64,000 nucleotides of DNA from Dehalococcoidia bacterium (GCA_965248475.1 OZ252106.1:1583640-1647639); one strand, 5' to 3'; shown: positions 4,447 to 61,523, counted from the first letter of the stretch. Numbers and translations are program-made. Notes: a model not told the origin generated them from the sequence alone.

Positions 4447-5643
4447 ATGACAAACGCAGAGATATCACTACGTGAAGCACGCCAGATTGTTCTGGCCGCG
4501 CAAGGATTTGGAAACCGGCCGCCAACCGGACAGCCGGACGCACTCGCGCTGGGAGAAACCGCAAACTATTTGGGCGCGATTCAGATTGACTCGGTCAATG
4601 TGGTAGTCCGTGCCCATTACATGCCTCTGTTTTCGAGGCTAGGGCCATACCCAATGGAATCGCTGAATGACCTTGCCTACAAGCAGCGATCACTATTCGA
4701 GTACTGGGGTCACGAGGCGTCTCTAATACCTGTTTCGCTCTACCCGCTGTTCAAGCATCGGATGAACGAGGCCGAGCCCGGAAGCAGGGTGCGGGACCTT
4801 CTGAAATCGGAACCGCTATACGTGGAATCGGTTCTCAGAGAGATCCAGGAGGCTGGTCCACTCATCGTATCCGAGCTGAGCGACCCCGGCCAAAGAACCG
4901 GGCCCTGGTGGGGCTATAACAAAGGAAAGATCGCCCTGGAATGGTTATTTGACACGGGGCGATTGGCAATAGCATACCGCAGGAATTTCGCCCGCGTGTA
5001 CGACTTGTCGGAGCGGGTGATACCTTCAGAACACCTGAATGCACCCATCCTGTCACCAGAGAAGGCCGTACGTGAGTTGCTACGGATCTCCGCCCAGGCC
5101 TTAGGCATCGGGACTGCCAGGGACATTGCCGACTACTATCGAATCCGACCACAACTGGTTAAGGAGCCATTGAGGGAGCTTGAAGAGGATGGTCACCTGG
5201 TACGAGTCTCGGTAGCAGGATGGAACGAACCAGCCTATATGCATTCCAGGGCGGCCGCAACCGACAAGATAAAAACAACGGCATTACTGTCCCCATTCGA
5301 TTCGCTGATCTGGAAGCGCGACCGCACGGAGCGATTGTTCGGGTTTAGATATCGCATTGAGATTTACGTACCTCAAGCAGCCCGTAAGTTTGGCTACTAT
5401 GTAATGCCCTTCTTGATGGGCGATCAACTGGTGGCCCGGGTAGACCTCAAGGCACACCGGCAGAAATCGACCCTAATGGTCAAGAGCGCCTATTTGGAGG
5501 AGGGCCAGGAACCCGGGGGGGTTGCTGGTGAAATGGCCCCACAGTTAAGCGCAATGTCGCAATGGCTGGGGTTGGACCAGGTCAGTGTTGGGAGGCGAGG
5601 GAATCTGAGTCGGGAACTAATCGCTGCCATGCGCCGCCAATAG
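4447..5643 (+). CDS. YcaQ/AlkZ-like winged-helix DNA glycosylase family protein (DUF1006)
   Basis: 398 aa. N-terminal LGAIQIDSVNVVVRAHYMPLFSR (Q-hydrophobic-D motif) and C-terminal YVPQAARKFGYYVMPFL resemble the YcaQ family. Confidence 0.7.
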   Translation: MTNAEISLREARQIVLAAQGFGNRPPTGQPDALALGETANYLGAIQIDSVNVVVRAHYMPLFSRLGPYPMESLNDLAYKQRSLFEYWGHEASLIPVSLYPLFKHRMNEAEPGSRVRDLLKSEPLYVESVLREIQEAGPLIVSELSDPGQRTGPWWGYNKGKIALEWLFDTGRLAIAYRRNFARVYDLSERVIPSEHLNAPILSPEKAVRELLRISAQALGIGTARDIADYYRIRPQLVKEPLRELEEDGHLVRVSVAGWNEPAYMHSRAAATDKIKTTALLSPFDSLIWKRDRTERLFGFRYRIEIYVPQAARKFGYYVMPFLMGDQLVARVDLKAHRQKSTLMVKSAYLEEGQEPGGVAGEMAPQLSAMSQWLGLDQVSVGRRGNLSRELIAAMRRQ

Positions 5644-5657
5644 ATACAGAGGCAGGC

Positions 5658-6926
5658 CTAAACCTCTCCTTCTAACAGGTTGAACACCATGCCTGTGGGC
5701 AGCTTGGGATGGAAGTAGGTGGACTTGGGAGGCAGCCGCTGGCCGGCAGACATGACCGCCTGGAAAAGGTCCATTGGGAATGACTTCAGGAAGAAGGCCA
5801 TCTGCTCACGACCTCCCACCACGCTCTCCCACGCCTCCACCGGATTATGGACGTAGGTGATGAGTTCACCCAGAGCGTCTCCCAGGACAGGTTCCAGCAC
5901 CTCCTGGTGGAGCACCCAGCCCTCGGAGTCCCGCAGACCACTCTCACCACCGGCGCTTTTAAGCATTAGCAGGTACGGACCTTCGCCATCGGGGCCCACT
6001 AGACCCAGCGACGTACCCCTGCCCTCACGAACCACCGCCTCCTCCAGCGCCTTTGCCGAGGTGGGCTGAGTTTCAAAGGTCTGTATCTGGAACACCTCCA
6101 ATAGCCTGTTGCGCACCGCCGTCAGCGTCGGCGGGTCCATATGCCCCAACGTGCGGTGATACGGCAGCACCAGCAGCCCTGGGTCATCGAAATCTATCAA
6201 TGTCACCATCGCAAAGTTGAATGCGTCCTGCTCCTGCCACGTCCCAGCCTTCTGCCGGGCCTGGTCCCGATAACGAATCGCCGTCTCATACCTGTGGTGG
6301 CCATCGGCGATGAACAGCGACGCATCCGCCAGTACCGACTGCACCGCGCCGCCTAGCTCGGATGCGTCGACCACCCACTGGGCCATTTCGTTACCTTCGC
6401 CGTCTTCAGCGACCGCATCGGGAGGCGTACTCATCACACGCTTCATGCCGCTCCTGATGAGACCATCCGAGTCCTGATAGGCGCACATCACAGGGCTCAG
6501 GTTGGCATGGCACGCCTCCATGAGCCGCAGCCGGTCCTCCTTAGGCCCCGAGGTGGTCTCCTCATGGGGCAGTACGATCCGGCGCTCGAACTCCTCCAGG
6601 CGGACCAGAGCAGTGAGCTCCCAGCGCTCCCATTGCTCATCAAGGTGGCGGAACCTGTGGCGTACCACGTAGTAGGAGGGGTGTCGATCCACCACGAGCA
6701 CACCATCCGCCCGCCACTTTGCCAGGTCCCGCGCGGCACCGGCGTACCGCTCCTCCGGGCCGCCCTCTGGCAACTCCAGGTGCACCGCGTTGTAAGGGCT
6801 GAGACCCGCCAGCGCCTGCCGTTCTGTAGTTGATATCACGTCATAAGGAGGACAGACCAGATCACCCAGGCAGGTAGCTTTATCAGCGGAGTATCGCAGA
6901 CCGCGAAACGGACGGACTTCGGCCAT
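5658..6926 (-). CDS. DUF1015 family protein
   Basis: N-terminus MAEVRPFRGLRYS...LVCPPYDVIS is the hallmark of DUF1015. 422 aa. Confidence 0.85.
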   Translation of the reverse strand: MAEVRPFRGLRYSADKATCLGDLVCPPYDVISTTERQALAGLSPYNAVHLELPEGGPEERYAGAARDLAKWRADGVLVVDRHPSYYVVRHRFRHLDEQWERWELTALVRLEEFERRIVLPHEETTSGPKEDRLRLMEACHANLSPVMCAYQDSDGLIRSGMKRVMSTPPDAVAEDGEGNEMAQWVVDASELGGAVQSVLADASLFIADGHHRYETAIRYRDQARQKAGTWQEQDAFNFAMVTLIDFDDPGLLVLPYHRTLGHMDPPTLTAVRNRLLEVFQIQTFETQPTSAKALEEAVVREGRGTSLGLVGPDGEGPYLLMLKSAGGESGLRDSEGWVLHQEVLEPVLGDALGELITYVHNPVEAWESVVGGREQMAFFLKSFPMDLFQAVMSAGQRLPPKSTYFHPKLPTGMVFNLLEGEV

Positions 6927-7143
6927 GAGGCCTCCTTAATCGTGCTATCTGGGATAGTATAGCGAGCCAGTCGACCCGTGGTCTACGAGGCAAAATAGAG
7001 GAGTGGGAGGATACCTGAAACGCGGAATGTCTGTGTTGGTAGTGAAAGGGAAGGATTAGCGCCCCTGAGCATTGACAGCAGTAAGAGGCAAGCCTAAGAT
7101 TGCGAAATCGATTTTTCCGAACAAATGGAGGCAAAGCAGGGAA

Positions 7144-7479
7144 ATGAAGAAGTACATCGTGATCTATCACGCAAACGAGGCAGCTGCTGAACTAATGCAA
7201 AACTCTAGCCCGGAAGAAATGCAAGAGGGCATGGAGCCATGGATGGCATGGGCGGCAAAATGTGGGCCCGCACTGGTAGATTTTGGTACCTCACTTGTGG
7301 GCGGTCAACAACTAAACAAGTCAGGAAGTTCGCCAAGCGATAAGGGCGTCATGGGATACTCGATACTGCAGGCTGAGAATATGGACGAAGCGAAAGCGCT
7401 CCTCGCGGGGCATCCACACAACGAATGGAACGCCGGCTGCTCTATAGAAGTTCACGAATCTATGCCGATGCCTTCGTAG
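7144..7479 (+). CDS. Small conserved hypothetical protein
   Basis: GGAGG-type SD before ATG 7144. MKKYIVIYHA...GMEPWMAWAAKCG...GHPH reads like a conserved ~110-aa family. The track start at 7072 is probably too far upstream. Confidence 0.55.
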   Translation: MKKYIVIYHANEAAAELMQNSSPEEMQEGMEPWMAWAAKCGPALVDFGTSLVGGQQLNKSGSSPSDKGVMGYSILQAENMDEAKALLAGHPHNEWNAGCSIEVHESMPMPS

Positions 7480-7612
7480 GTACTGCGGCCTGGAACGATT
7501 CCGCGCGACCGCCAAGCAGCCGCCTTACCTTATGGCATCGTGACTCTTAGTGAACCGCCTCTGGCGTGGTACTTGATGTCAAGGGATAATTACCAAGGCA
7601 TAAGATCTGTTT

Positions 7613-7906
7613 ATGACAAGAATAATCTCTTTCAAAGGTGAAGTAGAGAGGTTCCCGAGTCCCGGTGGTTGGTATTTCATTGCTGTGCCTAAGGACTATG
7701 TAGGACACTTGAAACAACAAAGAAAAGCATGGGGGATGTTTCCAATAACTGTATCCCTGAATGGCACCACGTGGAAAACGAAACTCATGATGAAGAAGGG
7801 CGGAGTCTTCTTTGTAGCTCTCAAAGCCGCTATTCGAGAGAAAGAGGAAATATCGTTGGGCGACAGAATCAAGATTTCTTTTAGGCTGGATCAATCCCAG
7901 GTATAG
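7613..7906 (+). CDS. DUF1905 domain protein
   Basis: 97 aa. PGGWYFIAVPKDY...ITVSLNGTTWKTKLMMKKGGVFFVALKAAIR matches the DUF1905 pattern. Confidence 0.7.
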   Translation: MTRIISFKGEVERFPSPGGWYFIAVPKDYVGHLKQQRKAWGMFPITVSLNGTTWKTKLMMKKGGVFFVALKAAIREKEEISLGDRIKISFRLDQSQV

Positions 7907-8283
7907 TGAAGAAATCTCTGGGCCGGCTTAGCTTGCTTAGATACTTGACGCGATATAGCAAATGGCGAAACACTTGCCAGGGGCATACGCGACCATCTGG
8001 GTAGCAGTAGCCTAGCTAGCATGGATATTCATAAATTAGCTGGCGCATTTCTGTCGTATTCTGGTAACGAAGCCCTTCCAATCCCTAGCCCATGAACTTT
8101 CCGAAAGTGCCCTACAGGTCAGTTCAATGTGCCGACAGCACCTAAGAGGTCTTATCAGCGGCCTAGAGGGACTGATTGGGGATGTGCTGGAGGATGTTGG
8201 GTGAAAGCGGGTATTTTGTGGAGTCCACCATCCAAAAGGGCACCAGGGAAGCCGACAATGATCCGACATGGAGCGATGAAGTG

Positions 8284-20526: not shown

Positions 20527-21039
20527 TGGTATCAGCTCCTGTCTACACCCTTAGATGCCCGTGATGACATCGGGGTACATTTCATGGAAACGGAACATCT
20601 GGGTCAATAATATTTGCGCCCGTGAGCACTTCAGTTCCGAGGAAGTCAGGTATGCAATTGTTCTCCGGGGAGATGTCGTGGATCAACTGCGGGTTTCGGC
20701 CCGGATGATGCTGATGACGATAATGACTCCGCGACTGGAAAATGACGATCCGACTATCTCAGATGTCGAAGATTGCGTTGCTCTCCACGACAGCATCGTA
20801 TCACCCCCCCCTCCGTTGCGAATTTGCCAGAAGGCCAGGAACGGCAAATAGCAGTTTGCAATTGCATCTCGCTCGTTTCGTGGGCATCTAAACAGAGTGC
20901 GACGTGGTTTGGGCAACCGAGCACACCTTGACCGCTGTGTATTAGCGAAGCACAGCAATTCACCAGGCGGCACTGCTTTTAGACTATCGTCGGGAGCGTG
21001 TACCGGCCCGTCACCGCCGACATTCAGGAGGAGAAGAAA

Positions 21040-21555
21040 TTGAGCCAGCTGACAGAGTTCCGCACTCAGAAGGACAAATTCTTCGCGAACGACCACCACT
21101 CCCCCCTTCGACAGCAGCAGAGAGATACCTTCAAAGGTCTGGCCTACTTCGGAGAAGACTCACTACTGCACCTAGAGGTGCAGGTCGAGGAGTATTCAGA
21201 GAATCAGCTTGTGGAGATCGCCACCAGCACCGGTGACGTCCAGACTTACGAGCGATGGGGAAGGTTCACGTTCGAAGTCTAGGGAGAGGCGGCAGAGCTG
21301 ACGGTCTACAGAACTGGCCACAGCCTTTTCCTGCCCTTTGCCGATGCAACAAACGGCGCGGACACCTATGCGATGGGTCGCTACGTCGAACCCGAATCAA
21401 TAAGTGGGAACAAGATACTGGTGGACTTTAACCTGGCGTACAACCCTTACTGCGCCTATAACGAAGACTGGAGTTGCCCAATTCCGCCAGCCGAAAACCG
21501 TGTCAGTGTGCCAATTGGTGCTGGGGAGAAGGCCTTCGGGAGCTCCGCCCACTAG
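21040..21555 (+). pseudogene. DUF1684 protein interrupted by one in-frame TAG
   Basis: AGGAGGAG + TTG 21040. Track ORFs 20998..21282 and 21373..21555 share one frame. ..GRFTFEV-TAG(21280..21282)-GEAAELTVYRTGHSLFLPFADATNGADTY..VDFNLAYNPYCAYNEDWSCP is one continuous DUF1684 domain. Confidence 0.75.
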
Positions 21556-22731: not shown

Positions 22732-25272
<2,541 letters not shown>

Positions 25273-27002: not shown

Positions 27003-27650
27003 TTACCCCCCGGCCTGGATGCAGTGGGCGCGGCGGATGGCATAGAAGGAGATACCCGCGGCGAGTAGCTCGGGGATGACGAGCCAGTAGAGCATGATGG
27101 CCAATGCTACGCTCCCTGATGTCACCAGGATTGCGCCAAGCACAGGGGCCTTCCGCATGAACCAGAATCCACCCGCAATGGCAATCAGACTTAGTGGGAG
27201 TAAGGAATAAAAGACGTAGGTCCAGTCTGGCAGATATGCGAAGTCAGCCTGGCGCCGGTACTCAATCTCTGCTATGACGGTGCGAATAAGCAATGCTACC
27301 AGTAGCATCGTCGCCATGACTCCCGTAACGACGGTCATGGTCTTGTAGTCCCTTGTCTGTGTCATGGCGCCCTCCTCCGTGTCTACGTCTCGCGTACGGA
27401 TGTGGGCCAGCCGCCACATCAGGTCGTCCGGGAGACCCAGCAGCCAACGGAGCAACAGGTGCGTCGCCAGTGGAAGGCCATTCCATTGATTCGTCTCTGC
27501 TTCCTGCGCCTGCTCCCAGAGATCTGCGTCGATCTCCTCACGGCGGGAGTCGCGGAGGCCCGATGGAAGGCCCGCGGTGTACACGCGTACCCAGGCGCGC
27601 ACGAAGCTAACGGAGCGGGGCATGAGCCCGGTGGCACTATGTCTAAACAT
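27003..27650 (-). CDS. Membrane sensor-like protein, paralog B of 28402..29061
   Basis: The N-terminal ~75 aa (GLMPRSVSFVRAWVRVYTAGLPSGLRDSRREEIDADLWEQAQEAE...LLLRWLLGLPDDLMWRLAHIR) are near-identical to paralog A. Four divergent TM helices follow. Confidence 0.7.
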   Translation of the reverse strand: MFRHSATGLMPRSVSFVRAWVRVYTAGLPSGLRDSRREEIDADLWEQAQEAETNQWNGLPLATHLLLRWLLGLPDDLMWRLAHIRTRDVDTEEGAMTQTRDYKTMTVVTGVMATMLLVALLIRTVIAEIEYRRQADFAYLPDWTYVFYSLLPLSLIAIAGGFWFMRKAPVLGAILVTSGSVALAIMLYWLVIPELLAAGISFYAIRRAHCIQAGG

Positions 27651-28045
27651 CGTCCGGGTCTCCCGGATGCGTTCCCGCTCTAGTCTCGCTCACGTTAGTC
27701 TGTCCGTCTCCGTCCGAGTCAAGCGGCTCCACTTCTCTCAGCGCGTTACGAAGCAACGCTATCTTCTCCGCGTCACTATCAGGGTCTATCCCTGTGGGAC
27801 CTCGCCTCTAACCGCGATGCCGTAGGGGTTCAGTGAGCGACGGCCGCTATGGCAGACAGAACAGTCATCAAGCGGCGTATCCTAGGTCTCGTAAACATCG
27901 TTGAATGTCGTCATTGCTAGCGTCGAGTGACCATCGAAGATCCCACAACCTGCGGTAATCAGGGCCATAGCAACGGTCGCTAGGGCCAAGGCGATCATAT
28001 TGGCATGTCCGAGACCATGGACAGTAATGGTTGGGAGAGGTGTCA

Positions 28046-29202: not shown

Positions 29203-29415
29203 TCAGTAGCTGTCTAGGAAGCCCACCTTCTCCAGTCGGGCCAGGGCCTTGTAAAGGGTGCCGTAGGCGGTGAGCAGCCGTGCATCGGCTCGGTCCCGCA
29301 TCTCCTTAGCGAGTAGGAAGCCGTGGGCGGCTTCGAGGCCTCTCTTCCGCAGGTCGAGGCCAGCCTCCATAATGGATGCTTCGAGTGGTACGAGAGCACC
29401 TGCTTTTCTCCGCAT
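29203..29415 (-). CDS. PadR-family transcriptional regulator, ends at a TGA on the conserved Trp position
   Basis: wHTH HGFLLAKEMRD...YGTLYKALARLEKVGFLDSY-TGA. The frame continues in-frame as EDPQVAADEGRPRRRFYRVTMAGETAL, the missing PadR C-terminal helix. Confidence 0.8.
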   Translation of the reverse strand: MRRKAGALVPLEASIMEAGLDLRKRGLEAAHGFLLAKEMRDRADARLLTAYGTLYKALARLEKVGFLDSY

Positions 29416-29421
29416 GGCGGA

Positions 29422-29451
29422 ATAATAGGAAGATATAGTCCCATTTGTCAA
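29422..29451 (-). promoter_or_regulatory. Sigma-70-type promoter giving a leaderless padR mRNA
   Basis: TTGACA (29451..29446), 18-nt spacer, TATTAT (29427..29422). ATG 29415 starts 6 nt after the -10 box and no SD is present. Confidence 0.55.
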
Positions 29452-29584
29452 GAGGGGCATCGCGTGACGGAATGCCGATCAAGGAAATGGGAGGCAGCAA
29501 ATGATGCATGGAACTTCCTGGCGCCCTCTTACGTCTTGTTAGTAAGACCAATCTCACATCACAGATTCTTACCGGGAGTTCACT

Positions 29585-29961
29585 ATGGCAATCGCAGCAA
29601 TGAAAAAGTGGCTGATACCGTTACTGACCATATCCGTTAGCCTGCTGGTGGGGGCCGCCTGTGGGGGGATGCAACAACCAGCCCTACGCCGACACCCCCG
29701 GTGACTCAAGAGTGGGAGCTGGAAAACATCCAGACGTTCGGCCCCACCGTTACGGTGTCGCTGCATATGTTTTCGGGAGTCGACGTGCAGGTGACGCTGG
29801 ACGGCAGGCAGGCCGATGAGGTCCGACCCGCCCTTCCAACAGTTGAGTACATTTTCAACGACGTGAGTGCGGGAAGGTATACGGTAGAGGTCCGGGACGT
29901 GGTCTGCTACAGCGAGACCGCCGAGGTGGCTGTGCCCACCTCGCCACCACTTTCGCCGTAG
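29585..29961 (+). pseudogene. Lipoprotein with Ig-like beta domain, frameshifted at a G6 run
   Basis: GGGAG + ATG 29585. MAIAAMKKWLIPLLTISVSLLVGAAC signal/lipobox. The frame breaks at G6 29663..29668. With 7 G it reads CGGDATTSPTPTPPVTQEWELEN..., joining track ORF 29701..29961. Confidence 0.65.
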
Positions 29962-30045
29962 CAGACGGCCCTTATCAGGAAGCTGGAAAACGAACCCGTA
30001 GCCAACCCACCCGCGTCCCTGACCCAGTACGGATACAAGGGCCAG

Positions 30046-30717
30046 GTGGTTTACTACGTACCGCCACGATGCTGCGACATATTCAGCGACCTGTACGACG
30101 ACAGCGGCAACATCATCGGCCACCCGGACGGCGGCATCACCGGCCAAGGCGACGGGCGTGTGCCGGACTTCATGGCGGAGCGAGAGGACGAAATCTTCGT
30201 GTGGAAGGACCTGAGGAGCAACGACCCAGCTTTGGTCCAGGTACCGGCCCCTATAGACAGTGTGGATATCCTGATATTGGAGAGCTTCCCGCCCCAGTAC
30301 AATGTAGTGCTAACCTCTGGCCTGCCCAACGGCTGCGCTTCATTTGCCGGTTACTACCTGAACCGTAACGACGACACCATACGTGTGGATATGTTCAACT
30401 GGAAACCGGCATCGCCTGACGTTGCGTGTACAGAGATATACGGGACAGTGGAGACCGTCATCGCATTGGGCAGCGACTTCGTCTCTGGCGAGAGTTACGC
30501 GGTGGTTGTCAACGACGTTACCAAAAGCTTTATTGCGCAGCAACAGGTGAAAGGAAACCTACGTGGGACAGGCAGTCGAAGTTACCATGGGGGGCACCAC
30601 CTACAGCGTTGCCGCAATACTAGTCGTAGCGGCCCTGTTGATCCTGGCCATAGCCGTGGCGGTAGGTGGTGTCATCGCTTACCGCAGGAAGAGGGAGGTC
30701 ACGATGGAAAAGAATGA
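30046..30717 (+). CDS. Cys-rich exported domain protein (DUF6970-like + ILESFP beta module); real 5' end lies upstream of 30046
   Basis: QYGYKGQVVYYVPPRCCDIFSDLYDDSGNIIGHPDGGITGQGDG matches my recollection of DUF6970. The conserved part starts at 29962, right after TAG and without a start codon. The 3' end is uncertain (junk-like tail after ..SFIAQQQ). Confidence 0.6.
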   Translation: MVYYVPPRCCDIFSDLYDDSGNIIGHPDGGITGQGDGRVPDFMAEREDEIFVWKDLRSNDPALVQVPAPIDSVDILILESFPPQYNVVLTSGLPNGCASFAGYYLNRNDDTIRVDMFNWKPASPDVACTEIYGTVETVIALGSDFVSGESYAVVVNDVTKSFIAQQQVKGNLRGTGSRSYHGGHHLQRCRNTSRSGPVDPGHSRGGRWCHRLPQEEGGHDGKE

Positions 30718-30907
30718 GCTAAGTCAAACATTCCTTGAATCAATGGCAAGACGAGTGGTCGCCTGGGGCTGCACCACCGTAGGGTTTCTCGGCCTGATCC
30801 TTGCTTTAAACGCAGGCTATAGCAATGAATATGTAAGTGCCGGAGCATGTCTGGCTGCATCTGCTTTGGCCTTCGGCGTGTACGCGTACGCCTTCCTGCG
30901 CAAGTAG
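30563..30907 (+). CDS. Membrane protein (3 TM), or the C-terminal anchor of the preceding protein
   Basis: AAGGAAA + GTG 30563. AAILVVAALLILAIAVAVGGVIAYRRKRE TM + stop-transfer. Joins the 30046 frame if the G6 run 30589..30594 has one base fewer. Confidence 0.55.
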   Translation: MGQAVEVTMGGTTYSVAAILVVAALLILAIAVAVGGVIAYRRKREVTMEKNELSQTFLESMARRVVAWGCTTVGFLGLILALNAGYSNEYVSAGACLAASALAFGVYAYAFLRK

Positions 30908-31309: not shown

Positions 31310-32203
31310 ATGAAAACCTGGTTGATACTACTAATGGGATTGACCCTGGCACTGGCCGCTGCCTGCGCGTCTGGCGAAGGCACCTCACCCACCCCGAACG
31401 CTGAACAGGTGATCGCAGGAACCCTTAAGGGAGCGGTGACTATAGGCCCGCTGTGCCCCATAGAGCCATGCAGTGAATCATCCGGCTACCCCTTCTCGGG
31501 CAGAGAACTTGTGCTTCAGCAGCCGGGTGGAGTGGTGCTCCAGGTCCCGCTGCAATCTGATGGCACCTTCGAGTTCGTCTTTCCCATAGGGACTTACACG
31601 GTACATATGTCGCCATGTGAGTACCTGGGCTGCCAGGCCGCCTTTCCTGTCTCCGTGGACATCATGGACGGAGAGACAACCACATTGAACATCGACATCG
31701 ACACAGGAATACGGTCTCCCGTGGGGCAGTCCGAGGCGTACGACCTGTACCAGGCCCTGCGTGCCACAGGGGTGTCCGTGAAGGTCGGCGGAGCCATCGG
31801 CCAGGTGTTCTTCAGCGTGCCGGGACAGGTACTGACAATAGACGGGACCGACGTCCAGGTGTTCGAGTACCCCGGGCCGGCCGAAGCTCAGAGCGATGCT
31901 GACCAGGTCGCGCCGGACGGGGGTTCTATTGGGCCGACCATGATCACGTGGGCTGCTACGCCCCACTTCTACAGGCTGGATAGCGTTATTGTGCTCTACG
32001 TCGGCGACGATGCGGCCGTATCTCTGCTATTGGAAGAGGCGCTGGGTGCACCATTCGCCGAGGGCGATCCGGCAATGACGAACGGGGCGCCGCCTGAAGA
32101 AGGTCAGGACGAAGAGACGTTCAGCAACCTTCTAACCCTGCTTGATGTGGAGCCGCTTCTGGCTTCTCCGGTGCGCCTTAGCAGCGAGATAATCGACTAC
32201 TAG
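31310..32203 (+). CDS. Lipoprotein with carboxypeptidase-regulatory-like beta-sandwich domain
   Basis: MKTWLILLMGLTLALAAAC signal peptide with Cys. TLKGAVTIGP...DGTFEFVFPIGTYTV resembles the CarboxypepD_reg fold. The track start at 31232 is too far upstream. Confidence 0.7.
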   Translation: MKTWLILLMGLTLALAAACASGEGTSPTPNAEQVIAGTLKGAVTIGPLCPIEPCSESSGYPFSGRELVLQQPGGVVLQVPLQSDGTFEFVFPIGTYTVHMSPCEYLGCQAAFPVSVDIMDGETTTLNIDIDTGIRSPVGQSEAYDLYQALRATGVSVKVGGAIGQVFFSVPGQVLTIDGTDVQVFEYPGPAEAQSDADQVAPDGGSIGPTMITWAATPHFYRLDSVIVLYVGDDAAVSLLLEEALGAPFAEGDPAMTNGAPPEEGQDEETFSNLLTLLDVEPLLASPVRLSSEIIDY

Positions 32204-32242
32204 AAGGGGGCCGAGGATGTAAACCCGGCCCAGGTCGTCAAC

Positions 32243-32562
32243 ATGGACAGCTGGTACGGCCTGGTCGTCGCTGCGACCGGCAGCGGGGCAGGCATGACGA
32301 TCGGAGTGATCGACTTCGTATCAGTGTCCGCAGCCCAGGAGCATTACGGGCTCGTGATGGAAGGGTTGGTGAACATGACCACGCCTATTGGAGACGCCTC
32401 TGCCGAGCTAGAGGTGAACGCCCAGGGCATTGGCAGCATGCTTGTATTCATATACGGGGCAAGGTTGTATCACTGCATACGGCACAGGCAGCGGAGGATG
32501 AGCCGCTGGTCTCCCTGAAGGGCCTGAAGGATTTGGCTGATCTCGTGATAAGCAGGCTGTAA
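32243..32562 (+). pseudogene. Hypothetical protein, frameshifted at a G4 run; in frame with the upstream gene across TAG
   Basis: After ..GSMLVFIYG the frame breaks at 32456..32459. With one extra G it reads GKVVSLHTAQAAEDEPLVSLKGLKDLADLVISRL-TAA (32560..32562). Confidence 0.5.
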
Positions 32563-46505: not shown

Positions 46506-47545
46506 CTATGTGGTCAAACCCCGACCCGGCAGTCCGGCATCCTTGAGCAAGGCTCCACGCTCCCGGCCTATCTTCCTGAGCTCCTTTGCGGCATCCCTCG
46601 ACATCTCACGCAGCTCCGAAGCAGGCCGTCCGCTCTCCAGCCACTCCCTCAACTCGTCCGCATCAAACCTGGGCAGGGACTCAGGAGAGATAGCGATGGT
46701 CGGAGGTGCGACCTGGCTCGGCACGGCGGGCAGAGGCCGGGGCCGGTTCTGATTGGGTCGCTTGAAATAGTCTCGCGGCCAGGCCAGCACCAGGTCAACA
46801 TGACCGTCCTTTTCCACCACGAGCACCGGGGTGTCCTCTCTGAGCCCGGACAGGTCTATCCTGTGCCCGCCGACGATCACCCTGGTCTCATCGTCCGTTT
46901 GAAACTCGACCATCGTGTCATCCTTGCGCACTATGATGAGGCTCACATCGGTAGCCGTCTGCACCCTGCCAGCGGTCAGATCGATAGTAATGACCTGGCC
47001 ATCTCCACCCAGAAGTTCGAATTCCGCGTGCAGCAGGTTCCCGGGCAGGTTATTCCCGATGATACGCCGCAGGTAGTTGGGCAACGGGTCCCGCTGGCGT
47101 TGCAGGGAATCGTTCGGCTGGGGACGAGGCCGTTCAGCCAGCGTGGCCTCCACAACCAACTCATCCCCGTCGCGCAGTATGGTCAAGGTCACGACGGTTC
47201 CAGGAGGCAGTTCCCGGATCGTCTGCAACCCTGCCTTGCGGTCTCCATCGGCTCGCCGTCTATAGCCGCCAGAACGTCACCCTGCTGGAGGTCTGCCTCA
47301 TCAGCGGGGCTGTCATCCTGCACACCCGCGATGACTACGCCGGACGTGTACTCGATCTCCAGGCGCTCGGCGATATTCTCGTTCAGGTTCACGACTCTTA
47401 CGCCCAGCCAACCGTGTTCGGTCTGAGCCTCTTCTTGTTGGACGGCGGGGGCTGAAGGAGCGGCGCTCCCTCCGGCGGCGGCCACCCCGACCAGGGAGAC
47501 CAGGCCCAGGACTCCAATCAGTAGGACTGCAACAAATCGTTTCAT
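46506..47545 (-). pseudogene. Secreted PDZ-domain protein, frameshifted inside the PDZ
   Basis: Signal peptide MKRFVAVLLIGVLGLVSLVGVAAA. The PDZ GWLGVRVV..SGVVIAGV..DLQQGDVLAAIDGEPMETA breaks at 47229..47231 and resumes as LQTIRELPPGTVVTLTILRDG in track ORF 46506..47228. Confidence 0.7.
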
Positions 47546-47717
47546 AGTTTCACTCCTCGGTTAAGTCTTGCACCAGAGATAACGGGAGAGGAGTGAAAGG
47601 TGTCAGGTGTAGGTTGCGCTTGTGGAGGTTACGTCAGGTCGGGTGTAGGACGCATGGCGGGCCTTGATGTCGTGCTCCGAAGAAATATGGGTGTCCCAAC
47701 GAGTCGGGATCCGAGGC

Positions 47718-48875: not shown

Positions 48876-49922
48876 CTAGCCCGTCACATGCACTGCGCCG
48901 GCTTCACCATCCGCAACCTCGCCAATCACCGCAGTTACCTGAACACCGTGGCCAGCCAGCTCTTTGAGCAGCTCCTCCAGCCTACCACTGGGGACGGACA
49001 TGAGCAGCCCTCCGGAGGTCTGGGCATCGCTCAATATGATTTTCATCTCATGCGTTACGGACTCATCCCAGGTCACCAGTGGGCCCAGAGAGGCCAGGTT
49101 GCTGAGTGTTCCGCCGGGAGCTATCCCCTGCTTCGCCAGGTCCATTACGCCACGCAGCAGGGGGACGTTGGGCCAGGAAATATGTGCCGCCACGCCGCCC
49201 GCCATCATCATCGCCTTCAGGTGGCCCATAAGCCCAAAACCTGTTACGTCTGTGCAAGCATTCACCCCCACGTGTGTCATGGCGGCGGACGCACCCTTAT
49301 TAAGCGTCTCCATAATCGCTATCGCTTCCGCCAGCGCATCCGCATCCACCACACCGTCCTTCCCAGCGGTGGTGATAATACCCGTGCCTATGGGTTTGGT
49401 CAGCACCAGGATATCCCCCGGCCGTGCGCCGGCATTGGTAACCTGATCTCCCGGCCGGATCAGCCCGGTCACCGCCAGGCCGTACTTGGGCTCAGCGTCA
49501 TCTATCGTGTGACCTCCAACGATGAGCAGGCCCGCTTCGGCGGCCTTGTCGTACCCACCCTTCAGAATGGTCACCAGGATCTCTTTTGGAAGGTCCACTG
49601 GGAACGCCGTAATGTTCATCCCCAGCAACGGCGTGCCGCCCATGGCGTAAACATCGCTCACGGCATTTGCCACGGCGATGGTACCAAAATGGTACGGGTC
49701 GTCCACTATGGGCGGGAAGAAATCCACCGTCTGGATCAGGGCAAGGTCCGGGCTTAGGCGATACACCGCAGCATCATCACCTGTCTCCGTCCCCACCAGC
49801 AGGTCAGGGTCGGATACCCGTGGTAGTTGGCGCAAGACCTGCGCCAAGTCCTCAGGACTGAACTTTGAGGCTCAGCCGGCGCAGCTGGCGAGCGCGGTAA
49901 GCCTGACGGCGTCCTGCTGCAT
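48876..49922 (-). CDS. selD: Selenide, water dikinase (selenophosphate synthetase), Sec-containing
   Basis: ATG 49922 after GGAAGGGAG. MQQDAVRLTALASCAG-U(TGA 49874..49872)-ASKFSPEDLAQVL aligns with the E. coli GAGCGCKISPKVL loop. LVGTETGDDAAVY and DFFPPIVDDPY motifs. SECIS hairpin downstream. Confidence 0.9.
49827..49847 (-). promoter_or_regulatory. Bacterial SECIS hairpin for selD UGA
   Basis: UUGGCGCA-GGUCU-UGCGCCAA, a perfect 8-bp stem starting 24 nt after the UGA. The apical GCAGGUCU resembles the E. coli fdhF SECIS apex. Confidence 0.8.
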
Positions 49923-50082
49923 AGCTCCCTTCCGTACGTTAGATTCGGGCAGCCTTGCGGCGCCCAATGAGGATAAGTAAGTGTAGCACTGATAGACATC
50001 GCCACGTACCGACGTTCCTACGTGAGGCGGTGTCGTGCCCTAGCCTAACAGACCATCCGAACCCGCGCCTGAGTGAGAAACC

Positions 50083-51011
50083 TCACTGAGTGAGGTTGGG
50101 GTATCTCTCACCCGTATCAGGCAACACCGTGACAACCACCTTGCCCTCACCCAGGCGCTGCGCAACCTGGAGTGCCGCCACTACGTTGGCTCCCGAAGAG
50201 ATACCAACCAGCAGGCCTATCTCGCGGCTCAACCGTAGGGTGGTGTCTATGGCTTCCTGAGTGGTGACGGTAACCACCTCGTCAACGATGTCTCGATCCA
50301 GAATGGACGGCACGAAGTCGGCACCGATACCGACTATGCCGTGGTCTCCCGCGCTGCCTCCATTGAGCAGCGGTGACGTGTCAGGCTCCACAGCTACCAC
50401 CAGCACCGAGTCGTTGGCGGCCTTCGGCGCCCGTCCCACGCCCGTCAGCGTCCCGCCTGTGCCGACACCGGCCACAAAGGCGTCAACCCGGCCTTGAGTC
50501 GCATCCAGTATCTCCCTGCCGTGCCCTCCTGGTGGGCTTTAGCATTGGCGGGATTGTTGAACTGATCCAACATCAGCAGACCATTATTGGAATCCAGCAT
50601 CCGTCTTGCCGCCAGGTTTGATCCATCCACACCCATGTCTGCAGGTGTCAGGTGGACCGTGGCCCCGAACCGGGCGACCAACCGCCGCCGCTCCAGGGGT
50701 ACGCCCTCCGGCATCACAATGGAGACCTGGTAGCCCTTGGCGGCACCCACTACAGCCAGGGCAACGCCCATGTTGCCTCCCGTCGATTCGATTAGGCCCA
50801 TGCCGGGCTTGAGCACGCCCCGTGCCTCAGCGTCCTCCACCATTGCCAGGGCCGCGCGGTCCTTCACGCTTCCACCGGGGTTCAGGTTCTCCAACTTGGC
50901 CAGGAGCTGCGCCGACCCAGGCGGTTCCAGGGCACGCAGCCGCACCAGGGGTGTGTTCCCTATGAGAGCAAGAATGCTATCGCTTAGAGCGTTGTCCAAG
51001 GTGCTCGCCAA
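50083..51011 (-). pseudogene. PLP-dependent cysteine synthase family protein (CysK/CysM-like), frameshifted
   Basis: GNTPLVRL, PGGSVKDRAA (PLP Lys). ..NPANAKAHQEGTA breaks at 50514..50516. The shifted frame gives (G)EILDATQGRVDAFVAGVGTGGTLTGVGR, joining track ORF 50083..50475. SD GGGAGG + TTG 51011. Confidence 0.8.
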
Positions 51012-51214
51012 TGTCGCCTCCCGTGAAGGGCCATTCTGTCATGCGGCCATAGGCTGCGGTCAAGAGGCAGGAGGGAAGACGAGGTTCGATTGTCTCCCCT
51101 TGAAACCGACTGTTCTATTTAGAGAATGCGGTGTCCCGGATTTGCGATTGGCGCGATCCGTTGATTGTATGCGAGAGAGCACAACTACCTCGCACCATAG
51201 CTATACAGTAGCCA

Positions 51215-52727: not shown

Positions 52728-54782
52728 ATGGCGAACCGGCTCAGCAAAGAGACCAGCCCCTACCTCCTACAGCACGCCAACAACCCCGTTGACTGGTACC
52801 CCTGGGGCCAAGAGGCATTCGACCGGGCACGCGCCGAGGACAAGCCCGTTCTCCTGAGCGTCGGCTACGCCGCATGCCACTGGTGCCACGTCATGGAACG
52901 AGAGTCGTTCGAGAACGAGGCAACCGCCAAACTCATGAACGACAACTTTATCGCCATAAAGGTGGACCGGGAGGAGCGCCCGGACGTGGACTCCATCTAC
53001 ATGCAGGCGGTACAGACCCAGACAGGGCGCGGCGGCTGGCCCATGACCGTATTCATGACACCGGAAGGCAGGCCATTCTTCTGCGGCACCTACTTCCCGC
53101 CCCAGGACATGCACAACATGCCCGGCTTCCCCAGTGTGCTGGAGGCCATCGCAAAGATCTATCGCGAACAGCGCGACGAGACGATAGTTTCTGCGGACCA
53201 GCTCACCGAAGAGCTGCGTGGCAGCGCGATCACGTCGCCGGAAACCGAGCCGATAACGCTGCAGGTACTGGTGCGCGCCTACCAGAGCCTGGCTCCAGAG
53301 TACGACAGCGAGCACGGCGGCTTCGGCACCGCACCCAAATTCCCACAGCCGATGGTGTTGGAGTTCCTACTGCGGTACCACGCCCGCGCCGCCGACGCCC
53401 AGGCTCTGGCTATGACCGAATTCACACTGGACAAGATGGCACGCGGCGGCATGTACGACCAGCTCGGCGGGGGGTTCCATCGCTACTCCACCGACCCATT
53501 CTGGCTTGTCCCACACTTCGAAAAGATGCTATACGACAACGCACTGCTCAGCCGTGTCTACCTTCACGCCTACCAGGCAACCGGCAACCCAGAGCATAGT
53601 CGCATCGTCGAAGAGACGCTGGACTACGTGCTCCGCGAGATGACCAGCCCGGAAGGCGGCTTCTACTCCACACAGGACGCGGACAGCGAGGGCGAGGAGG
53701 GCAAATTCTTCCTCTGGACGCCCCAGGAGATTGAGGAGGTGGTAGGCGAACGCGAAGCCGCCCCTTTCAACCTCTACTACGACGTCACGGCCGAGGGCAA
53801 CTTTGAGGGACGCACCATACTCCGCATCATCGAAGACCGAGACGATGTGGCAGAGAGCCTGGACGTCACAGGGACTGAGCTGGCAGAGATCGTCAAGGAG
53901 ACAGCCCAGAATCTGCTCGCCCACCGTCAGACCCGGGTGGCGCCAGCCAGGGACGAAAAGGTGCTCACGGCCTGGAACGGCATGATGCTCCGCACCTTTG
54001 CCGAGTCTGCCGCCACGCTGCACCGCGCCGACTACCTGGATGCGGCGGTGCGAAACGCCTCCTTCCTTCTGGACACCATGCGACCCGCTAATGGCCGTCT
54101 TCTGCGGACATACAAGGACGGCGAGGCGAAGCTGAATGCATACCTGGAGGACTACGCCCATCTTGCCGACGGCCTGCTGGCCCTGCACGAGGCCACCCTG
54201 GACATACGCTGGCTCCAGGAGGCCACTACGCTGGCCGACGCTATGCTGGAGCTGTTCTGGGACGAGGACGAGCAGGGTTTCTACGATACTGGACTCGACC
54301 ACGAGGAGCTGATCCTGCGGCCCAGGGACCTGTGGGACAACGCAACGCCCAGTGGCAGCTCCGTTGCCACGGATGTATTGCTAAGGCTGTCCATACTGAC
54401 AGGCAACCAGGAGTACAACCGCCGCGCCGCCGCAGTACTTCGCTCCATGAAGGTTGTCCTGCCCCGTGCGCCCGCGGGCTTCAGCCACTGGCTCTGCGCC
54501 CTGGACTTCCACCTGTCCACGCCCAGTGAGATCGCCATTGTCGGGCCGAGAGACGACGACGCCACCCAGGCGCTGCTGGACGAGGTGTACAGCCGCTACC
54601 TGCCAAACAAAGTCCTCACTGGCTTCGATCCCGCCCAGCCAGACGGCGCATACGAGCTGCCCCTGCTGGAAGACAAGTACATGGTGAATGACATGCCTAC
54701 CGCCTTCGTGTGCCAGAACTACGCCTGCCAGCTACCCGCCACGGAGCCACAGGCGCTGGCGGAGCAGCTTACCGAGGGGTAG
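52728..54782 (+). CDS. Thioredoxin-domain protein YyaL (DUF255 + (alpha/alpha)6 barrel)
   Basis: [18 protein letters not shown]...[14 protein letters not shown]-terminal DUF255 signature. 684 aa. Confidence 0.92.
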
Positions 54783-55352: not shown

Positions 55353-55375
55353 TAGGCAACGCTGCTGGAGGACAG

Positions 55376-55480
55376 GTACATGGTGGATGACAGGCCCGCC
55401 GCCTTCGTGTGCCAGAACTACGCCTGCCAGATGCCCGCCACGGAGCCACAGGCGCTGGCGGAACACTTACCGAGGGGTAA
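55376..55480 (+). pseudogene. Displaced duplicate of the yyaL 3' end
   Basis: About 90% identical to 54677..54782. Encodes [29 protein letters not shown], then a 1-nt deletion shifts the last codons. Confidence 0.85.
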
Positions 55481-55548
55481 CAGCTATGGATGCCGGAATT
55501 ATACTCAATTGGATACTGAATAGGCCGGACTCCCGCGCCTGAGCCAGC

Positions 55549-60452: not shown

Positions 60453-60723
60453 CAAAAAACCCGGCTCTACTCAGGCCGGGTATTCACCAGTAATCGGCAG
60501 CTCGTGGGGCGTTGACGAAAAGCTACCGGGGCGTCCTCTGTATGGCGCAGAGTAGAACTCACGCTACCCAGGTAGGTCTCCTGACTCACGGATCGTCACC
60601 CGCCGACGCCTTCCCATCCCGACAGCCAGGACAGTGGCATGATGCCAACAGGCTCCCCGTTTACAGTGGCGCAACCGTGGCGGACTCACACCGCCTTCCC
60701 TTTTCAGCCGGTACAGCACCTGG
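60453..60723 (-). promoter_or_regulatory. Cobalamin (B12) riboswitch with intrinsic terminator
   Basis: P1 CCCAGGU..ACCUGGG. Core AAAAGGGAAGGCGGUGUGAGUCCGCCACGGUUGCGCCACUGUAAACGGGGAG. GCCACUG..GGGAAGGCG. B12 box GAGUCAGGAGACCUACC. Terminator CCCGGC-9nt-GCCGGGUUUUUU at 60479..60453. Confidence 0.9.
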
Positions 60724-60765
60724 GAGCTTCCAATATTCGATTGTTAAGGAATCTCGGATCGGGGC

Positions 60766-61271: not shown

Positions 61272-61306
61272 GATGCGCCGCTATCGTGAATTAGGTACGT
61301 TTAAGC

Positions 61307-61375
61307 TGCCCGGCCTGGGTTCGAACCAGGGACTTCAGCTTCAAAGGCTGACGTGCTACCGCTACACTACCGGGC
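61307..61375 (-). tRNA. tRNA-Gln (anticodon UUG)
   Basis: Hand-folded cloverleaf: acceptor GCCCGGU/GCCGGGC, anticodon stem UCAGC/GCUGA with loop CUUUGAA, T-arm CCUGG-UUCGAAC-CCAGG. CCA is not encoded. TATAAT at 61402..61397 lies upstream. Confidence 0.85.
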
Positions 61376-61523
61376 AACGCATATCCAACCAGAGTCATTA
61401 TAGCTGATTGCTATGGGTGAGCCATCTGCAGCCCTCAGCGGTTGCTAACGGCGGGCGCATGAGCTACATTGTCGCTTGACCCCAAAACTGATACCACACC
61501 CCATATGGACAGAGGAGGCTCCG

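Follow-up and report, generated by a model that had tools for sequence, protein, structure and literature searches.

A broken DUF6970/PF27154 lipoprotein gene in a Dehalococcoidia genome is probably an ordinary pseudogene

Segment 29585-30543 of a 64,000-nucleotide stretch of a Dehalococcoidia genome (GCA_965248475.1; the whole stretch is called the window) is, on our reading of the sequence, probably a genuine disabled copy of a lipoprotein gene in a decaying locus. Three independent lesions appear to disable it: a 1-nt deletion, a TGG to TAG change and a TAA to CAA change (Table 1). The locus is probably an ordinary pseudogene and not a recoded giant protein. A first-pass annotation had proposed a single broken large protein; its signal-peptide, Ig-like and DUF6970 pieces do belong together, whereas its transmembrane (TM) piece does not.

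Table 1. Features of the lipoprotein locus and other affected genes, in window coordinates
Feature	Position	Strand	Details
DUF1684 gene, in-frame TAG 21280-21282	20983-21552	+	Domain match 2-139 of 139 spans the stop
Divergent PadR regulator, in-frame TGA 29203-29205 in PadR domain	29203-29460	-	ATG 29460; ..LDSY*EDPQVAADEGRPRRRFYRVT
Start codon and lipoprotein-type signal peptide MAIAAMKKWLIPLLTISVSLLVGAAC	29585-29662	+	Cys codon 29660-29662
Lesion 1: 1-nt deletion (G7>G6), likeliest site the G6 run	29663-29668	+	Directly after lipobox Cys
Thr/Pro linker and N-terminal beta-sandwich (Ig-like) module	29669-29958	+	Shifted frame
Lesion 2: TGG>TAG (Trp126)	29959-29961	+	CCGTGGCAG in L001/L002, CCGTAGCAG in window
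DUF6970 (~29980-30210) and C-terminal PF27154 (ORF11_beta) beta-sandwich	29962-30540	+	Ends ..KSFIAQ
Lesion 3: TAA>CAA, true stop lost	30541-30543	+	DNA alignment
Read-through tail, non-homologous	30544-30717	+	Overlaps next ORF out of frame; TGA 30715-30717
5' part of downstream ORF: PLDc_N-type membrane-protein gene remnant	30563-30690	+	GTG start, AAGGA ribosome-binding site, one TM helix
Small 2-TM gene MEKNELSQTFLESMARR..	30704-30907	+	ATG 30704, own GGGAGG ribosome-binding site, in frame with remnant
Second lipoprotein gene, broken	31310-32562	+	TAG 32201-32203; 1-nt deletion at G4 run 32456-32459
Secreted PDZ-domain protein, frameshift ~47223-47233 (CAGGGTTGCAG)	46509-47560	-	PDZ profile truncated at 46-61 of ~80
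selD (selenophosphate synthetase), in-frame TGA 49872-49874	48876-49940	-	..SCAG-U-ASKFSPEDL
cysK (cysteine synthase-like PALP), 1-nt deletion at short G run ~50509-50519	50086-51038	-	Pfam

Results

The lipoprotein gene and its orthologs

The frame of ATG 29585 passes through the first G6 run and meets a stop at 29702-29704. In the frame of GTG 29701, the DNA from 29662 onward gives ..WGDATTSPTPTPPVTQEW.. and closes with ..PTSPPLSP-TAG; past this TAG the same frame continues as QTALIRKLENEPVANPP.., in which the first ATG, GTG or TTG is the GTG at 30046. A homolog search with a 440-aa conceptual repair of these pieces returned 146 matches, with Chloroflexota/Dehalococcoidia metagenomes among the best, and nearly all of them carry precomputed PF22311 and PF27154 annotation. 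The best matches (P0001-P0005 and others) are 310-330 aa long and cover 71-72% of the 440-aa concept; at the very top of the list the lengths are 316-319 aa. In about 40 Chloroflexota/Dehalococcoidia orthologs, none more than 78% identical, the signal peptide, beta-sandwich, DUF6970 and PF27154 modules form one ORF, and the window pieces match these single-ORF orthologs with E 1e-164, well beyond chance. Among 63 loci compared by tblastn, L001-L009 give single-frame, full-length matches. Since the orthologs run uninterrupted from signal peptide to PF27154, the first two window pieces constitute one gene of about 319 codons.

The signal-peptide Cys is invariant across 40 aligned orthologs, whose N-termini share a MKKWLIPLL..AAC segment with the window. 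The window ORF is split by a frameshift and the TAG although the Cys and signal peptide are kept. The linker and beta-sandwich part is 77-78% identical to P0001 and P0002; in Pfam it gives a weak CarboxypepD_reg match alone (E 0.05). DUF6970 (PF22311) is recovered with E 3.1e-29 and 101 bits against a cut-off of 27, over profile positions 2-78 of 78. The match occupies residues 7-83 after the TAG, so the domain begins about 21 codons upstream of GTG 30046, the first possible start. The Pfam profile search gave no match to PF27154; this part of the window aligns residue for residue with PF27154-annotated orthologs.

P0001/P0002 ('hypothetical protein IIB33_01720 [Chloroflexi bacterium]') resemble the window copy in domain order, in 77-78% amino acid identity, in the invariant Cys, Trp and RCCD residues and in having the same small membrane-protein genes downstream. 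These relatives are intact single ORFs, whereas the window copy has a frameshift, a nonsense codon and a lost stop; by alignment it appears to be a family member by descent and not an intact one.

These comparisons bear out several first-pass proposals. The signal peptide joins the Ig-like part only with one base gained at the first G run, as the single-ORF orthologs indicate; the TAG does break the gene, where it replaces an invariant Trp; and the DUF6970 domain has no start codon of its own and extends upstream of 30046. The long ORF expected in orthologs exists as a single ORF of 316-330 aa, without the TM continuation. The proposed 440-aa protein is found in no relative, no match covers more than 72% of it, and the product would be 319 aa.

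Three lesions

The lesions were polarised by aligning the DNA with that of relatives L001 and L002; nucleotide identity is about 78%, and the window and the two relatives are all about equally far apart. The frame switch of lesion 1 is confined between the Cys codon and ~29674, where the T/P-rich linker reads in the other frame; the G6 run fills most of this interval. After the Cys, the window linker is a net 7 nt shorter than in L001 and L002, equal to two codons and 1 nt. Both relatives lack the G run, having TGTGGAGTA and TGTTGGGTG at that site. With G7 in place of G6 the window would read ..AACGGDATTSPTPTPPVTQEW.., equal in length to ortholog P0012. Lesion 1 most likely sits in or beside a lineage-specific G6 run.

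At lesion 2 the relatives read CCG TGG CAG and the window CCG TAG CAG; Trp126 is invariant in two ortholog alignments (n=30 and n=40). At lesion 3, CAG TAA CAGGTGA in L001 and L002 corresponds to CAG CAA CAGGTGA in the window, and 10 of 10 aligned orthologs terminate at the position of the window CAA. All close orthologs finish at ..F(V/I)AQ and the window alignment reaches their last residue; no ortholog extends into the tail beyond, either in the homolog search or in the alignment. The tail is therefore junk-like because the stop codon was lost, and not through the frameshift at the second G6 run (30589-30594) that the first-pass annotation had suggested.

The downstream ORF

That second G6 run is not a lesion, as window ATGGGGGGCACC aligns gap-free to L002 ACGGGGAATACC. 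In L002 a called gene (6980-7408, 142 aa, PF13396, PLDc_N) has its ATG at the position of window GTG 30563, with an AAGGA(G) ribosome-binding site ahead of the start in both, and window 30563-30690 aligns to its first ~130 nt. Because this is a separate gene in L002 and the second G run shows no gap, the third piece is not part of the lipoprotein gene; ORF 30563-30907 is distinct from it. The proposed fusion to a TM anchor through the second G run was consequently rejected, given that the close orthologs stop at ..AQ and that in the DNA alignment the TM ORF pairs with a separate gene.

ORF 30563-30907 is itself a chimera derived by deletion, in which the 5' remnant of the PLDc_N gene runs in frame into a small 2-TM gene. 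By blastn, window 30501-30690 matches L002 6918-7107 and window 30688-30850 matches L002 7419-7581, the latter (the small 2-TM gene) with 78% nucleotide identity; 311 nt of L002 are skipped, with the junction at ~30688-30691. In L001 a small gene with the same N-terminus, METNQINQPFLEAMAR, comes after the lipoprotein gene.

We note that in L001 transposase genes (4548-5764 and 7290-8186) flank the intact lipoprotein gene and one of them truncates the small 2-TM gene. The small 2-TM gene of L002 (7419-7700) is without an ATG and looks frameshifted. From these comparisons the lipoprotein locus appears to be unstable in several lineages.

Neighbouring broken genes

The divergent PadR ORF covers, by itself, positions 9-49 of the 75-position profile; read through its TGA, it covers 9-74 of 75 (E 2.6e-11). 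We assume that PadR sequences have a conserved Trp at the stop position, which would make the lesion TGG>TGA. Beyond this TGA the PadR frame stays open to 28402, into a downstream HAAS-like membrane-protein ORF, so that the gene may have had its own stop lost or displaced as well; another frame contains an ATGA overlap. Downstream of PadR lie tandem paralogous HAAS-like membrane proteins (27006-27689 and 28405-~29060, both on the minus strand) that share ..TGLMPRSV(S/G)FVRAWVR(V/L)YTAGLPSGLRDSRREEIDAD...

The second lipoprotein gene, when read through, is 60% identical over 391 aa to a single 419-aa ORF, L001:8483-9742. The DNA alignment pairs the window TAG with AAG in L001 and opens a 1-nt gap at the G run; the restored tail reads ..GGKVVSLHTAQAAEDEPLVSLKGLKDLADLVISRL*.

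The rest of the window

Lesions outside the locus were found by reading stop-to-stop ORFs and then verified with Pfam, a census that is partly by eye and may be incomplete; a codon-usage frame plot alone was too noisy for finding lesions. DUF1684, PDZ-domain and cysK genes proved to be affected. Of the two cysK ORFs, one covers positions 3-147 of the PALP profile and the other 147-295; cysK is normally a housekeeping gene. The in-frame TGA of selD lies at the selenocysteine position and is probably a genuine Sec codon. After it comes a short sequence able to form a small hairpin (CCTCA..TGAGG). In the ten longest genes (5604 codons, 16.8 kb), which are intact, the Pfam matches are full-length. 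About one in ten window genes is disabled, a hint that the genome of the organism is eroding.

Two further fragments were noticed by eye. Short ORF 55356-55520 (+) looks, by eye only, like a gene-fragment remnant that repeats ~40 residues from the C-terminus of the DUF255/thioredoxin-domain gene at 52728-54782 (..FVCQNYACQ(M/L)..). A flavin-reductase-like fragment near ligA, ~22850-23080 (-) (..GFAINVYGSDQRELAG..GDSVVFVAEI..), is without its N-terminal part and is probably a truncated remnant.

Stop usage among 66 likely ORF ends of the window is unusual (TAG 37, TGA 24, TAA 5). A cobalamin riboswitch (60554-60737, minus strand, 114 bits) lies upstream of a minus-strand operon, near tRNA-Gln(UUG) at 61305-61376 (-), the only tRNA in the window.

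Discussion

Pseudogene or assembly error

The ancestral product would have been an exported lipoprotein of about 319 aa, with a signal peptide and Cys, a Thr/Pro linker, a beta-sandwich, DUF6970 and a PF27154 beta-sandwich. If the lesions are true mutations, translation initiated at ATG 29585 would terminate after 39 codons, and the in-frame starts downstream, being without an export signal, would yield no functional product. The locus would then no longer be under selection, as is also suggested by the broken PadR regulator and the broken lipoprotein gene that follows. The decay appears fairly recent, because the remaining coding sequence still looks constrained. Ordinary bacterial pseudogenes of the frameshift/internal-stop class flagged by annotation pipelines likewise carry multiple independent lesions, have functionally linked neighbours that are disabled too and may adjoin a deletion remnant. 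Nothing essential sets the window copy apart from them; its inter-lesion sequence is well conserved.

We give clearly less, though still appreciable, probability to the gene being intact, with some or all of the lesions being assembly or consensus errors of a long-read metagenome-assembled genome (MAG). The errors would be homopolymer under-calls and substitutions, perhaps in a low-coverage or strain-mixed stretch. Each of the four frameshifts in the window is a deletion of one base at a G or C run (G7>G6, G5>G4 and, twice, G4>G3, with T3>T2 as an alternative for one of these last two), and such deletions, which split ORFs, are the classic long-read consensus error. cysK is also frameshifted, split exactly at PALP profile position 147. 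According to NCBI/ENA the window lies on a single 2.4-Mb contig. The relatives come from long-read metagenome assemblies (MAGs or metaMDBG contigs), some at 2x-6x coverage, and their contig names are in the style of metaMDBG, which has been used for HiFi-based metagenome assembly (PMC12586988). The coding sequence between the lesions looks fully constrained, all polarised substitutions are transitions, and a stop loss is a priori rare under any random process, its target being ~3 nt.

The substitution-type lesions and their strong clustering are unlike homopolymer artefacts. By calculation ~3% of random substitutions create a stop, so the four in-frame stops and one stop loss seen in 64 kb would need at least ~100 random substitutions (~2 per kb), against four indels observed. 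This ratio is the reverse of the indel-dominated long-read error profile; consensus assemblies are far more accurate than ~2 errors per kb, and what errors they contain are mainly indels. Of the nine disabling lesions counted in the window, six cluster in 3.4 kb (binomial P~1.5e-6, on a census made partly by eye), while the 16.8 kb of long genes carry none. The frame is kept over 840-1150 nt between lesions, which excludes sequence of raw-read quality. The neighbouring 311-bp deletion remnant and the two gene remnants noticed by eye cannot be explained as base-calling errors.

Two measures fit recent inactivation or none: the window lineage has an N/S of 36/33, where relatives have 23/27 and 41/31, and it departs from 1 of 63 highly conserved columns, as is usual in the family. 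The inactivation may accordingly be described as recent or partly artefactual. A mixture of true stop mutations with some artefactual homopolymer indels is possible. Local hypermutation was considered and rejected, as the 106 substitutions private to the window compare with 95 and 97 in two relatives and show no skew in their spectrum.

Bypass, recoding and separate genes

It is very improbable that the lesions are real but bypassed, so that the full-length lipoprotein would be made in a subpopulation by slippage on the G tract (phase variation, or frameshifting during transcription or translation) together with low-level read-through or recoding of the TAG. Neisseria, Campylobacter and Haemophilus have phase-variable surface lipoprotein genes with poly-G contingency tracts, and in such genes the tract often directly follows the lipobox Cys. 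The window resembles them in its frame-setting G run immediately after the signal peptide; the remainder of the lipoprotein ORF is well preserved, and selD probably provides a stop recoded elsewhere in this genome. The window run differs from contingency tracts in being short, at 6 nt, and missing in orthologs, and the TAG and the stop loss are irreversible lesions. The TAG replaces an invariant Trp and is not in a Pyl or read-through context, the true stop of the gene is lost too, and neighbouring genes carry the same kinds of lesion. Reassignment or suppression of TAG was rejected, since TAG is the dominant terminator (37 of 66 ORF ends) and the 64-kb window contains no suppressor tRNA, its sole tRNA being tRNA-Gln(UUG). 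Were bypass nevertheless to occur, this gene and its broken lipoprotein and PadR neighbours would together make up an envelope module that is switched on and off stochastically in an uncultured lineage of Dehalococcoidia.

Least credible of all is the picture that a gene caller gives, of three small and independently functional genes (29701-29961, 30046-30717 and 30563-30907): the 86-aa and 114-aa products are present as called proteins in a public collection, but this reading is refuted by the DNA alignment, by DUF6970 homology starting 21 codons upstream of GTG 30046 and by the single 316-330-aa ORF in every relative, and the 86-aa ORF has no signal peptide and the tail of 30046-30717 no homolog.

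Fold and role of the intact family

The DUF6970/PF27154 family is already known, uncharacterised and widespread in Chloroflexota; a literature search found no mention of DUF6970. An AlphaFold model of ortholog P0001, built with an alignment of 30 orthologs (pLDDT 79), has three modules: a 7-stranded beta-sandwich (44-117), an alpha+beta DUF6970 module (125-208) and a further beta-sandwich (217-317). When this model was compared with the PDB by Foldseek, only generic tandem Ig-like proteins were found (TM ~0.2), giving no functional lead. The fold, in which a lipid anchor carries three extracytoplasmic modules of all-beta or alpha+beta type, suggests that the intact family consists of lipid-anchored extracytoplasmic or surface proteins with a binding or structural role. 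Genes of the intact family adjoin small membrane proteins and a PadR-type regulator.

Conclusions

For annotation, the small lipoprotein ORFs are best recorded as one DUF6970/PF27154 pseudogene, and not as three genes or a 440-aa fusion. The value of this is mainly one of quality control, and the locus offers a compact example on which to practise the distinction between true pseudogenes and long-read artefacts in MAGs. Should the lesions be real, this Dehalococcoidia lineage is losing an envelope-lipoprotein locus linked to PadR.
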